Shown: positions 6,261-52,146 of the stretch, in pieces
How positions within the stretch are numbered: the stretch's first letter is position 1
How the letters are laid out: every line of letters begins with the position of its first letter
Notes under the pieces: generated by a model
Told to the model about the DNA's origin: nothing
Seen by the model: the letters and a program-made list of their open reading frames with translations, nothing else
Databases searched by the model: none
Origin: a virus
Taxonomy: Duplodnaviria; Heunggongvirae; Uroviricota; Caudoviricetes
IMG/VR virus record: IMGVR_UViG_3300021387_000463
Location: 171,001-235,000 of that record
Direction: 5' to 3' (one strand)
Length of the DNA: 64,000 nt
Program-made: the position numbers and the translations under genes

Positions 6261-6862
6261 AATACTACAGATACCTTAGAGAAATAGAAGAAGTTCAAGA
6301 TAATACTAATATAAATTATTTTATCACATATACATTTGGCGGTAGAACGAATAGATTAAATAATCTTGGTACATATGGAAACAATGATATGTGGCATAAT
6401 ACTGGTGACGTAATCTATTCTCTTGAACCACAATACAAGAAATATAATTTCCATGTTAGCTGGATTTATCAATCTGCTGATGATGGAAAGACCATCATGG
6501 ATGACACCAATAATCTCCATGATTTAGAGCCAATTAGGGACTATTTCTTTGAGGTTAACACTGACCTCGATGCTGCAACTGAGGAACTAATCAAGCTAAA
6601 GAGAGAGAAAGGTGCTAATATTACGATAAAGCCACTTATGATGGATATGAGAAGTTATAAGATTATCTATCATATTGAGTGTAATGTTATGACTAAAAAC
6701 GGTAAGTGCTTCTCTAGTACTTGGGATGAAGACACCGATGTATACAACTCAATTGTTAATTGTTTCAAGAAACTTAGAAAAGGTACTTCTAGTGGCTATC
6801 ACTATAAAATAAAAGAGGTTTTAGAAAAACAGAAAGATGAAAGAATACGGAAGCATACCTAG
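6257..6862 (+). CDS. Hypothetical protein
   Basis: ATG overlaps the upstream stop. Confidence 0.7.
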   Translation: MKYYRYLREIEEVQDNTNINYFITYTFGGRTNRLNNLGTYGNNDMWHNTGDVIYSLEPQYKKYNFHVSWIYQSADDGKTIMDDTNNLHDLEPIRDYFFEVNTDLDAATEELIKLKREKGANITIKPLMMDMRSYKIIYHIECNVMTKNGKCFSSTWDEDTDVYNSIVNCFKKLRKGTSSGYHYKIKEVLEKQKDERIRKHT

Positions 6863-7523
6863 GTTTTTCGATGATGGTACACTTCGTGGTGAGCAAGTCG
6901 TTGCTTTCAATAAGCTAGATGGGCAGAACTTTAGAGTTAAATATACTCCAAAGGGAGCAACAAAAAAGCAATTCACCATGTTTGGTTCACGTCATCAATA
7001 TGTGGATGAAAATACTGAGGGCTTTGGTGATGCAGTTAGATACTTCAAAGAACATTATGAAGATGTATTGAGGGAGATAATTGTGAACAATAGCGGTAAG
7101 AAAGGTATTTTCAATGGTGTTGAGGAAATTACATTGTTCTTTGAATGGTATGGAGATAATTCCTTTGCTGGATTCCATCAAGAGGGAGATACTCTTCGTC
7201 TCGCATTGATTGATGTGTTTCTTAAGAAGAAGGGATATATTGAGCCAAATACGTTTGTTGACCTTTTCTGTAAGGATGATAGGGTGTTGACTCCAGAGGT
7301 GATATATATCGGCAAACTCGATATGGACTTTGTTAACTCTATCGTGAAGAACGATTGGACTAAGGAGGGATGCCAATATCCAAACATCAAAGAAGGAGTG
7401 GTTATTAAGCGTTCTACGCTCATGAAAGGGCAGAGGCTACCAATGTGTAAGGTAAAGACAATTTGGTGGCTTGAGCAACTTCATAATCGTTTTCCAAAGG
7501 AAATGTGGAAGGAACTTGAATAA
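6837..7523 (+). CDS. ATP-dependent RNA ligase-like nucleotidyltransferase
   Basis: Motif I KLDGQN, III FFEWYG, IIIa LIDV, IV EGVVIK, V KVK. Confidence 0.8.
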   Translation: MKEYGSIPRFFDDGTLRGEQVVAFNKLDGQNFRVKYTPKGATKKQFTMFGSRHQYVDENTEGFGDAVRYFKEHYEDVLREIIVNNSGKKGIFNGVEEITLFFEWYGDNSFAGFHQEGDTLRLALIDVFLKKKGYIEPNTFVDLFCKDDRVLTPEVIYIGKLDMDFVNSIVKNDWTKEGCQYPNIKEGVVIKRSTLMKGQRLPMCKVKTIWWLEQLHNRFPKEMWKELE

Positions 7524-7915
7524 TGGAGATAATAGAAAAAAGTGCAGGATATAAGGCTACCAAAATTGCCTTAATGGAAGGTAAAACAGAACTTGGTTTC
7601 CTAATATATGGAGAAAAGAATCCACCTTACGAGGATTATGTAGAGGTTCTTTATCTTCGTGTTAACCCTAGTTACCGTAGGAGGGGATATGGAAGAATCT
7701 TGATGGATAAATTCTTCAGCAATATTTCTTCTTATGTTGGTGATGTGATGTTATATGCAACTGCAAACTATGATGTTGGTAGTTTGTGTCATGTTGATAA
7801 AGTATTACAGATACCGCAAGATAAATTGGAGGAATTCTATAGGAAATATGGATTTAAGAAAGTTGACCTTTGGAAAAACGAGATTTCTCCGAGAATGAGA
7901 ATGACCAAAAGTTAA
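7523..7915 (+). CDS. GNAT family acetyltransferase
   Basis: Acetyl-CoA motif LRVNPSYRRRGYGRILM. Confidence 0.85.
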   Translation: MEIIEKSAGYKATKIALMEGKTELGFLIYGEKNPPYEDYVEVLYLRVNPSYRRRGYGRILMDKFFSNISSYVGDVMLYATANYDVGSLCHVDKVLQIPQDKLEEFYRKYGFKKVDLWKNEISPRMRMTKS

Positions 7916-7965
7916 GATTAGTTAAAAAACTTGTTTTTCTCGTTTTTTATGTATATCTTTGCAAC

Positions 7966-8067
7966 ATGAAAAACGTAAAGGATTTCAAGATTGCATTAAA
8001 CAAGGAATTGAAGAATGTATTGTTTGTTATGGCAATAGCCATTACGATACTTATTTTTCTGATATAA
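7966..8067 (+). CDS. Small membrane peptide (33 aa)
   Basis: ATG directly after promoter 7954; hydrophobic C-terminus. Confidence 0.5.
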   Translation: MKNVKDFKIALNKELKNVLFVMAIAITILIFLI

Positions 8068-8096
8068 AAATAACAATTTTAAATATTTATAAAGAC

Positions 8097-8783
8097 ATGG
8101 CAAATTTAAAAGAAAGACTGTTAGGTCTCATCGACAATGGCACATCTGCTGCATTGAGTCTTGTTGACAAGATGAATGAGACCATCAATTCTATCGACTG
8201 GGATGAGCAGTTCGAGTCTCTTAACACAGTGAAGGACTCTTTACTTCAGAAGGGTAATGAGCTGCTTGGTGAGTTTAACGAGCTGATGAAGCAAGTTAAG
8301 AACAATATCTCTGATTTCGAGGTAACAGTACCTTTTGACGAGTCTCTTGGTGAGAAGTTTGAGTCAAGAATTGAGGACGGTAAACTTATCGTTGAGGTTA
8401 CATTCAAGGACGAGCACACCGAGCGTTCTAACAAGACCGCAGTTACAATTCCTCAGAACTGTGACGTTGAGAAGAAGACCGAGAAGTATAACGCAGTCAC
8501 CAAGACAATGACTGTGATTATTCCGAAGGTCATCAACGAGCCAAAAGAAGAGCCAAAAGAAGAGGCAAAGACCGAGAAGAAAAAGAGCACTCGCTATAAG
8601 GTTTCTCGTGTAGTTACTACAAAGAAAGAAGCAAAGGAGGATACAACCTCTCATGCTCAGGAGGCAGCTAGCAAACTGTTGAAGAAGTTCCGTGAGAACA
8701 GTGCCAAGGCTGCTACCAAGGTTGTACAGCAGTCTCGTGCAGCTAACGGACGATTCGTTAAGAGAACTCCAAGCGAGAACTAA
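8097..8783 (+). CDS. Hsp20/alpha-crystallin-like protein with helical N-terminus and Lys-rich tail
   Basis: Central beta-sandwich pattern ending YNAVTKTMTVIIPK; start trimmed to ATG 8097. Confidence 0.55.
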   Translation: MANLKERLLGLIDNGTSAALSLVDKMNETINSIDWDEQFESLNTVKDSLLQKGNELLGEFNELMKQVKNNISDFEVTVPFDESLGEKFESRIEDGKLIVEVTFKDEHTERSNKTAVTIPQNCDVEKKTEKYNAVTKTMTVIIPKVINEPKEEPKEEAKTEKKKSTRYKVSRVVTTKKEAKEDTTSHAQEAASKLLKKFRENSAKAATKVVQQSRAANGRFVKRTPSEN

Positions 8784-8825
8784 AAGATAACATTGTTATT
8801 TTGTTCATATTGATTGGTAAACATT

Positions 8826-8857
8826 GCCTACTGCCGTTTGTGAAAATAGTGGTAGGC
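8826..8857 (+). terminator. Hairpin with GTGA loop (terminator or processing stem)
   Basis: gcctactgc...gtggtaggc between the Hsp20-like gene and the tRNA. Confidence 0.55.
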
Positions 8858-8868
8858 TTCATTTATAT

Positions 8869-8960
8869 CTCCACGTGGGTGAACTGGTTTAGCCACTAGT
8901 CTGCAAAACTAGCTGAACGGTATCCAATCCGTCATGTCGGTTCGAGTCCGACCGTGGAGT
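8869..8960 (+). tRNA. tRNA-Cys(GCA) with atypical long variable arm
   Basis: Acceptor CTCCACG/CGTGGAG, U73, anticodon stem CTAGT/ACTAG with loop CTGCAAA, T arm GTCGG-TTCGAGT-CCGAC, 23-nt variable arm; CCA not encoded. Confidence 0.85.
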
Positions 8961-8979
8961 CAGGAAAATGTAGAATGTT

Positions 8980-9294
8980 ATGTTTGAAATTATAGACAAG
9001 AACGAATTAACGAAGGGAGAAGTCACTTATCTTGTCATAAAGTTCTTGAGAAGGAAATGTTTGCTTGAAGAGTTTTGTGAAGAATATAGCGACTACCATA
9101 AGCGTTATAGGCGTGATTTAAAAACAACCATTAGAGAAGCTGTTAGAGATTGTTGGTCAATAGCTGATTTCTTTAAGAGTACTGAGTCTTCATTTGTCTG
9201 GAATAAAACAAGAAGAGGCTATTGTTTTTGGTATGAGCTATCAAAAGAATGGAAAGAGTATACAAATGGTAAACATTTTAAAGGTGGTTTATGA
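8980..9294 (+). CDS. Hypothetical protein, FxW..TxxG..YW family
   Basis: KFLRRKCL..F ... FVWNKTRRGYCFWYELSKEW. Confidence 0.8.
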   Translation: MFEIIDKNELTKGEVTYLVIKFLRRKCLLEEFCEEYSDYHKRYRRDLKTTIREAVRDCWSIADFFKSTESSFVWNKTRRGYCFWYELSKEWKEYTNGKHFKGGL

Positions 9295-9644
9295 TTGATA
9301 TTGAAAGAATATTATCCAATGAATTTGGTAAGGATATGATAGTAACCGAAGAACAACTAGCATATCTTTTCACCAAGTTTCTTTTGGCAACTGGAGCTTA
9401 TAGGGATTTCGTTAAAGAATACGTTAAATACCATAAGTCAAATTTAAAACCCAAAGATGTTATTATAGACTCAATCAGGAACCTAAAGTTAGATGGAAGA
9501 ACAATTAATGATATGGTTACAGCATATTGTTCTGCGTTTGACTGGTGGGGTACAGAAAAAGGAAGTCAATATTGGAGCGCTCTAAGTGAACAATGGTATG
9601 GCATGACTAAAAGGCGTTTTTTAGGATATTTTATGGTAAAATGA
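9291..9644 (+). CDS. Hypothetical protein, FxW..TxxG..YW family
   Basis: FDWWGTEKGSQYWSALSEQW. Confidence 0.8.
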   Translation: MIDIERILSNEFGKDMIVTEEQLAYLFTKFLLATGAYRDFVKEYVKYHKSNLKPKDVIIDSIRNLKLDGRTINDMVTAYCSAFDWWGTEKGSQYWSALSEQWYGMTKRRFLGYFMVK

Positions 9645-10003
9645 TTGATATTAAAGAAATATTGTCTCACGAAATTAAATCTGAGATAAGTAAAAAGCAT
9701 CTAGCATATATTTTTACCAAATTCCTTTTAGCAAATGGGTCGTTTAAAGAGTTTGTTAAAGAATTTATTTCGTATCACAATGAATTTAGGCGAGAAAATT
9801 TGATTATAAAAAATCCGAAGGATGCTATTTTTTATTCGATAGAAAAATTGAAGTCAGATAATAGACACATTCGTGCAATACTTCTAGCATATTCTTCAGC
9901 ATTTGATTGGCGAGATACTGAAAATGGAGAGGAATATTGGAGTAGATTAAACGACAAATGGCTTGATATAATCAAAAGCTATCCACAAATATATGTAAAA
10001 TGA
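9641..10003 (+). CDS. Hypothetical protein, FxW..TxxG..YW family
   Basis: FDWRDTENGEEYWSRLNDKW; tandem paralog of 9291. Confidence 0.8.
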   Translation: MIDIKEILSHEIKSEISKKHLAYIFTKFLLANGSFKEFVKEFISYHNEFRRENLIIKNPKDAIFYSIEKLKSDNRHIRAILLAYSSAFDWRDTENGEEYWSRLNDKWLDIIKSYPQIYVK

Positions 10004-49510: not shown

Positions 49511-49582
49511 GCCTCAGCTAGCTCAGTTGGTAGAGCACTACGTTTGACGTAGGGGTCGTTGGTTCGAGTCCAACAAGGGGCA
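49511..49582 (+). tRNA. Degenerate tRNA-like element (short anticodon loop, broken acceptor base)
   Basis: Canonical D arm and T arm; anticodon arm CTACG-TTTGA-CGTAG; only 5 acceptor pairs. Confidence 0.7.
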
Positions 49583-49653
49583 CAAAAATGCTCGTTTTGC
49601 GTTGTGGTAACGCTCTTTGTTTTCCATAATTTGAATTGTTAGGTTTTTAGTTA

Positions 49654-51923: not shown

Positions 51924-52017
51924 GGGCGAGTGTTGCAACTAGGTTAGACAAGTTGGTCTTAAAAACCAATGGGCATAAAAGTAAGTCCTATGGAGGGTTC
52001 GAGTCCCCCCTCGCTCA
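51924..52017 (+). tRNA. tRNA-Leu(TAA)
   Basis: Acceptor GGGCGAG/CTCGCTC, A73, D stem TTG/CAA, anticodon loop CTTAAAA, long variable arm, T loop TTCGAGT; CCA not encoded. Confidence 0.9.
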
Positions 52018-52146
52018 CACTTTAATCTCCTTTACCAAGTGGGAAATGTTAAAGATTGTTATAATCCAGACATTTCTCACTAATTTTTTTGGTAGATTCA
52101 TTATTTTTTCGTATCTTTGCATCACAATTAAAAAGGAGATTATATT

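Follow-up and report, generated by a model that had tools for sequence, protein, structure and literature searches.

The window analysed here, a stretch of 64,000 nucleotides, lies within a 412,753-nt virus record (G000) from gut or rumen samples that contains a terminase, about 50 tRNAs and a tmRNA. A gene for tRNA-Cys(GCA), the only one found in this phage genome, lies behind a 228-aa gene and a hairpin (Table 1). ARAGORN called Cys(GCA) at 8869-8961, the match to Rfam RF00005 reached 46.8 bits (gathering score 29, E 7.6e-07), and the stems comprise 7 bp (acceptor), 3 bp (D), 5 bp (anticodon) and 5 bp (T). The GCA anticodon, U73 and C1:G72 pair named in a preliminary description of the locus were all present in the parsed tRNA, and the 23-nt variable arm with its ACGG/CCGU stem was located exactly as quoted there; the CCA in the loop of this arm is not conserved. 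The acceptor continues with U2:A71, and the bacterial Ser signature (G1:C72, G2:C71, A3:U70) is absent from it.

Table 1. Features at and around the tRNA-Cys slot (window positions, unless prefixed with G000:C1 for the whole record).
Feature	Position	Strand	Remarks
tRNA-Cys(GCA) gene	8869..8960	+	92 nt, 7/5 cloverleaf, A15:U48, CCA not encoded
Acceptor stem, 5' strand (C1, U2, C3)	8869..8875	+	pairs with 8953-8959, C1:G72
Anticodon arm	8896..8912	+	loop CUGCAAA at 8901-8907
Variable region, 23 nt	8913..8935	+	hairpin, core ACGG/CCGU, 8-nt loop
T arm	8936..8952	+	5-bp T stem
Discriminator U73	8960..8960	+	main CysRS determinant
Hairpin, then U-rich stretch	8826..8857	+	just upstream of the tRNA
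228-aa gene	8097..8783	+	conserved in the phage clade, synteny anchor
GNAT acetyltransferase gene	7523-7915		just upstream of the slot
RNA ligase (PF09414)	6837-7523		1.3 kb upstream of the tRNA
CCA-adding-family enzyme	G000:C1:164271-164678		~15 kb upstream of the slot
Long-arm class I-anticodon tRNAs	G000:C1 22857, 108254, 119982, 147150, 110795		Gln, Glu, Asn, Met, Pro; outside the window

The protein encoded by the 228-aa gene had no match in Pfam or PHROG and is specific to the phage clade (181 homologs), with a Lys/Glu-rich C-terminal half and a conserved basic tail. The hairpin behind it is retained in relatives even where the tRNA slot is empty and so marks the left border of a swappable slot; it may act as a terminator or in processing. 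BLASTN against GenBank phages returned short fragments only. Among metagenome contigs of relatives from four runs over positions 7900-10000, none spans the tRNA body, one RNA contig ends at 8876 (contigs cannot show RNA ends) and in one DNA contig the slot is replaced by 161 other letters.

The window contains 37 Bacteroidota-type promoter matches where 2 would be expected, and Shine-Dalgarno motifs are seldom found in this phage; by its promoter signature, the host is predicted to belong to the Bacteroidota. The promoter matches span 1949-62538, nearly all on the + strand and densest after 40 kb, with none between 1979 and 10268. A private phage synthetase for the long-arm tRNA was considered and rejected: an HMM search of the phage genome covering three families, PF01406 (CysRS), PF00587 (SerRS-type) and PF00133 (Leu/Ile/Val-type), gave no match, and a scan for the KMSKS motif found nothing.

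Long variable arms in bacteria are, according to textbooks, restricted to Ser, Leu, Tyr and Sec tRNAs. A survey of homologous phage tRNAs, as proposed in the preliminary description, was made by two pattern scans of IMG/VR and yielded 85 distinct long-arm GCA tRNAs (counts span related phages and hence are not independent). The gene, which had been treated as a rare oddity, is a member of a widespread phage class that accounts for no more than about 12% of phage tRNA-Cys genes (16 long and at least 120 short ones, for one pattern pair with one T-loop variant). Arms in this class are 11-25 nt long and form simple hairpins of class II geometry with no common sequence (GAAA occurs in 39 of the 85), and the length of the D arm likewise tracks that of class II tRNAs. 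A decoy anticodon inside the arm was considered and discarded, UGCAA being found in just 1/85 arms. In one group of gut phages (L009, L022, L046, L057, L067, L080, L084, L098, L105, L132), a short-arm and a long-arm tRNA-Cys lie ~1.9 kb apart, the long one having the same D arm as the gene described here and A1:U72 or G1:U72 as its first pair.

Two independent metagenome contigs (L263, L266) carry a gene identical to that at 8869-8960. Among the stem cells of 15 related genes with a long arm, 99.3% are paired, against 33-51% when the partners are slid, with changes on both sides at 18 of the 20 stem pairs, and an arm stem of at least 3 bp is formed by 71 of the 85 class members compared with a mean of 37 (maximum 47) after shuffling. 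Because the identical gene recurs in independent contigs, the pairing is compensatory and arm stems exceed those of shuffled sequences, the gene is neither a chance feature nor an assembly error, and we are all but certain that it is a real tRNA.

The identity elements of the class were compared with those of Ser tRNAs from the same loci as the long-arm GCA hits. Position 73 lay outside the search pattern, and U73 was found in 81/85 long-arm GCA tRNAs against 8/45 Ser tRNAs, while G73 was found in 0/85 against 37/45; G2:C71 (9/85 against 43/45) and a GGA/UCC acceptor (3/85 against 38/45) were distributed in the same manner as G73. Arm geometry was calibrated on the data by counting the unpaired bases between arm and T stem, which are mostly 1 in Ser (33/47), 2 in Leu (59/67) and 3 in Tyr tRNAs (27/36); the long-arm Cys tRNAs have mostly 3-4 (58/83), indicating an arm geometry that is mostly non-Ser. 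The description of C1:G72 as untypical holds insofar as G1:C72 is the norm, but the pair is also present in short-arm phage tRNA-Cys (4/65, and 3/85 of the long-arm class) and is better called rare but recurrent.

The preliminary description had raised the question whether host Bacteroidales tRNA-Cys genes commonly have the same arm; their variable loop is 4 nt long, as seen in ~89 short matches from 121 genomes (the order of a Bacteroidales-titled MAG); the long matches in those 121 genomes were the seed contig itself and one candidate, and all seven host tRNA-Cys genes that were checked begin with G1, G2. A scan of 185,579 prokaryote genomes with one pattern gave 116 matches, among them about 44 long-arm tRNAs, some selC*-like, some with Ser, Tyr or Leu bodies and a GCA anticodon, and the rest mostly in tRNA clusters. 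Because Bacteroidales loops are short and only these ~44 long-arm matches were returned across the 185,579 genomes, the long arm is not a host trait. In 4 of 61 sampled Phycisphaerae-class genomes (G133, G153, G143, G177), the sole tRNA-Cys candidate is long-armed, with U73 in the two genes checked (L318, L319; G133, G153), suggesting that a tRNA with an arm of this kind can be used by cellular CysRS enzymes. Five bacterial MAG loci (L165, L170, L210, L228, L236) combine Ser-type bodies (G73, GG acceptor) with a GCA anticodon; these may be better candidates for Ser-at-Cys mischarging than the phage gene, or else point mutants or assembly errors.

At the slot behind the 228-aa gene and hairpin, related phages carry about ten tRNA-Cys alleles, seven with a long arm (the gene described here, L296/L264, L130/L265, L002, L003, L291 and L293) and three with a short arm (L004, L294 and L298), and the slot is empty in two relatives (L005, L289). 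Likeness between alleles is mostly 43-67%, compared with 71-87% for the flanks in the two closest relatives. An allele with 95% identity occurs in a phage in which the neighbouring anchor protein shares no more than 47% identity. The acceptor, the anticodon stem and the arm behave as modules that are shuffled, with compensatory swaps in the anticodon stem between otherwise near-identical alleles, and the anticodon loop and U73 alone are fixed across alleles; the arm sequence is unconserved and its hairpin shape is kept. The genomes G000, G002, G003 and G004 have one tRNA-Cys(GCA) apiece, located at the slot. Because both kinds serve as the single tRNA-Cys at the same site, the long and short versions are interchangeable as the phage's sole tRNA-Cys.

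Long arms were also found in the same genome on tRNAs for Gln(UUG) (V=16), Glu(UUC) (V=17), Asn(GUU) (V=19, with G73) and Met(CAU) (V=14), and short-arm twins with the same anticodon exist for Gln, Asn and Met. The arm of Pro(UGG) in G000 is lengthened too (V=11), and this tRNA also has a twin with a shorter arm. The isotypes that bear a long arm vary among relatives, G003 and G004 having long-arm Thr, Trp and Gln(CUG) tRNAs. Of 69 class I tRNAs with a long arm in the vicinity of the Cys hits, 62 have the N73 of the short-arm tRNA for the same amino acid; across phages, the discriminator follows the anticodon and not the arm.

Our preferred reading is that the gene encodes a working phage cysteine tRNA whose body has been diversified to escape host tRNA nucleases, a composite proposition that we consider evenly poised. 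The sequence gives good support for cysteine identity, and the first part, charging with Cys, is quite probable; given such charging, selection of the arm or body for nuclease escape is somewhat favoured. The tRNA would be transcribed with its neighbours, trimmed and supplied with CCA, possibly by the phage's CCA-adding-family enzyme, after which the host Bacteroidota CysRS would read the conserved GCA and U73, the major Cys determinants (PMC9976931), and load Cys for decoding of UGC/UGU. That CysRS can accept a long arm has been shown experimentally for selC* (PMC5389517). SerRS and LeuRS should largely ignore the arm, since it would be an add-on without Ser acceptor marks and most likely set at a non-Ser angle. 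The main risk for Cys charging is the first pair: the 1:72 pair is contacted by CysRS, G1:C72 is the norm, and selC* tRNAs with A1:U72 are accompanied by a variant CysRS (PMC5389517, PMC7609411). Because CysRS contacts this pair and the phage was found to have no CysRS gene, C1:G72 may lower charging.

Whole tRNA-Cys alleles are exchanged between related phages at the slot, and the likeliest driver of this exchange would be escape from host tRNA-cleaving defences, with shape and stems that no longer fit the nuclease target; the nuclease-resistant branch of the preliminary description fits such swapping. Host tRNases are evaded by phage tRNAs (PMC10264068, PMC12409363), and tRNA-Cys(GCA) is a target of VapC4 (PMC13273310). 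Against escape count the observations that a long arm can itself be cut (VapC52) and that no tRNA-Cys nuclease was identified in Bacteroidota; moreover, the anticodon loop is the same as in Bacteroidales hosts, although the stem differs, and the escape changes that have been published affect the anticodon loop or stem, not the variable arm. A broader proposition, which we regard as tentative and rather doubtful, is that adding a variable arm to class I tRNAs (those for Cys, Gln, Glu, Asn, Met, Thr and further ones) and swapping whole alleles at fixed slots is a general, shape-based way in which phages escape host tRNA nucleases with amino-acid identity preserved, the arm itself being protective.

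The alternative that survives best is an ordinary Cys tRNA in which the arm is merely tolerated, CysRS ignoring the variable region and the hairpins arising through recombination with class II genes or for stability, with no defence purpose. The short-arm and empty slots of close relatives, the unconserved arm sequences with their recurring GAAA and the bacteria that live with a long-arm tRNA-Cys are all compatible with it. We nonetheless think it unlikely, given that long arms are a sizeable minority in phages and nearly absent from host chromosomes, that they predominate among the slot alleles, that long-arm class I tRNAs cluster in the same phages (13.4% compared with 4.0% of neighbours, with kinship not corrected), and that whole-gene replacement between conserved flanks suggests diversifying selection.

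It is considerably less probable that the RNA is a poorly charged decoy, in which C1:G72 would prevent efficient cysteinylation and the molecule would soak up a host tRNA-Cys nuclease rather than decode. The first pair is indeed read by the CP1 of CysRS, and the phage carries many non-decoding tRNA look-alikes, but U73 and GCA are strictly retained, C1:G72 together with U73 recurs in phage genes (about ten unrelated ones with a long arm and four with a short arm), and G1:C72 alleles occupy the same slot.

The preliminary description had also suggested a chimeric tRNA. On this reading, host SerRS (or LeuRS) would read the arm and load Ser (or Leu), with partial mistranslation of Cys codons during infection. 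SerRS depends mainly on the arm and not on the anticodon, G73 is just a moderate determinant in E. coli, U73 is not foreign to the phage Ser tRNAs counted above, and the nematode nev-tRNAs provide a precedent. The arm can be folded in two registers, one with 4 bp and 3 unpaired 3' bases (-26.7 kcal/mol) and a Ser-like one with 6 bp, a bulge and 1 unpaired base (-27.5 kcal/mol); the latter is 0.8 kcal/mol more stable in this allele, a point against the Cys reading, and energy alone leaves the register undecided between what are modelled as near-equal folds. In sister alleles that share this acceptor, the arm is preceded by an unpaired linker of 4 nt and followed by 2 unpaired bases; these alleles and the class as a whole favour 2-4 unpaired bases on the 3' side. 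The A15:U48 pair is of Leu type (67/67 Leu tRNAs), but no pair is more common at these positions in short-arm phage tRNA-Cys (27/65), and the A73 shared by all 67 Leu tRNAs is missing here, as are the Ser acceptor pairs and G73. The Ser-type GCA tRNAs of bacterial MAGs, with their G73, look different.

The meaning of the Cys codons was addressed by comparing the phage with the short-arm relative G003 over 324 protein pairs. Cys was 83% conserved, Cys-to-Ser changes (38/1392) did not exceed those in the opposite direction (29/1417, p=0.27), and Cys usage was 1.61% compared with 1.68% in the relative, so that neither depletion of Cys nor a Cys/Ser excess is apparent. Moreover, UGU/UGC is used for the essential catalytic or metal-binding Cys of thymidylate synthase, radical-SAM, NrdD-like and thioredoxin-like motifs. 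Genetic-code reassignment was likewise rejected: code 11 fits, TAG/TGA read-through barely alters long-ORF coverage, and Cys usage is normal. As judged from these comparisons, reassignment of Cys codons is excluded and low-level mischarging would be compatible with the data. With the discriminator and acceptor counts, the mostly non-Ser geometry, the lack of a Cys-to-Ser excess and the interchange with short-arm tRNA-Cys at the slot all opposing it, the chimeric tRNA is a very improbable reading.

Removal of the extra segment as an intron or insert to leave a normal short-arm tRNA-Cys is scarcely credible: tRNA-like genes with inserts occur in the genome and an RNA ligase gene lies nearby upstream, but the arms vary in length without a common sequence, form simple hairpins with class II geometry and are accompanied by D arms of class II length.

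With canonical bacterial tRNA-Cys (E. coli cysT; Bacteroidales L278-L285), the gene shares GCA, the CUGCAAA loop as in Bacteroidales, U73 and the 7/5 fold, whereas it has a 23-nt arm rather than 4 nt, C1:G72 rather than G1:C72, U2:A71 rather than G2:C71, and A15:U48; identity to a Bacteroidales tRNA-Cys gene is about 54%. The selC* tRNA-Cys (Mukai et al. 2017, PMC5389517), which is cysteinylated by CysRS, likewise combines a long arm with U73 and GCA, but it has a Sec-like body (8/4, long stems), is linked to selB*/cysS* and occurs in anaerobic bacteria, while the present gene is 7/5 with a normal D loop, phage-borne and without a cysS partner. Nematode nev-tRNAs (PMC3333845, PMC4300185) also join a long variable arm to an anticodon that is neither Ser nor Leu; they are leucylated, with A73 in all 115, their discriminator following the arm (PMC3333845) rather than the anticodon as here. 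The nuclease-evading phage tRNAs (van den Berg 2023, PMC10264068; T5 tRNAs facing PARIS/AriB, PMC12409363; those in retron and PrrC evasion, PMC11555353) are likewise phage versions of a host isoacceptor whose body has diverged; in these papers, however, substitutions lie in the anticodon loop or stem with no added variable arm, whereas the loop here is that of the host. Allo-tRNAs (8/4, 9/3; PMC5389517) share the long arm, and their anticodon need not match the amino acid; the present gene differs in its 7/5 branch and in an acceptor without Ser and Ala determinants. On its features, the gene appears to fall outside the selC*, Ser and Leu families and to depart from canonical tRNA-Cys in its arm and first pair. 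Our literature search, with most subscription journals outside its coverage, found long arms described for Ser, Leu, Tyr, Sec, selC*, allo- and nev-tRNAs and not for a 7/5 phage tRNA-Cys.

Phages thus routinely break the textbook rule on variable arms while apparently keeping cognate identity. What this locus contributes is a natural series of alleles at a single site (long, short or absent; C1:G72 or G1:C72), with which it can be tested directly which body features host CysRS and SerRS need and whether the arm protects against tRNA-cutting defences. If the arm protects, it would represent a principle of counter-defence and a rule for designing nuclease-resistant tRNAs; if it is neutral, merely an overlooked shape variant.

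Further tRNAs and tRNA-like elements were seen in this genome. The window holds a degenerate tRNA-Gln-like element (49511-49583) and a tRNA-Leu(UAA) with a 23-nt variable arm (51924-52018). Beside tRNA-Gly(GCC), at G000:C1:115268-115384, lies a tRNA-like element with U73 and a ~31-nt loop replacing the anticodon loop, which ARAGORN at relaxed settings reports as an intron-containing Cys tRNA. A class II amber (CUA) tRNA with A73 is located at G000:C1:134142-134227, although the genome reads as code 11, and G003 and G004 have CUA tRNAs with shorter arms. Two tRNA-Tyr genes (G000:C1 110416 and 110704) have the unusual first pairs C1:G72 and U1:A72.
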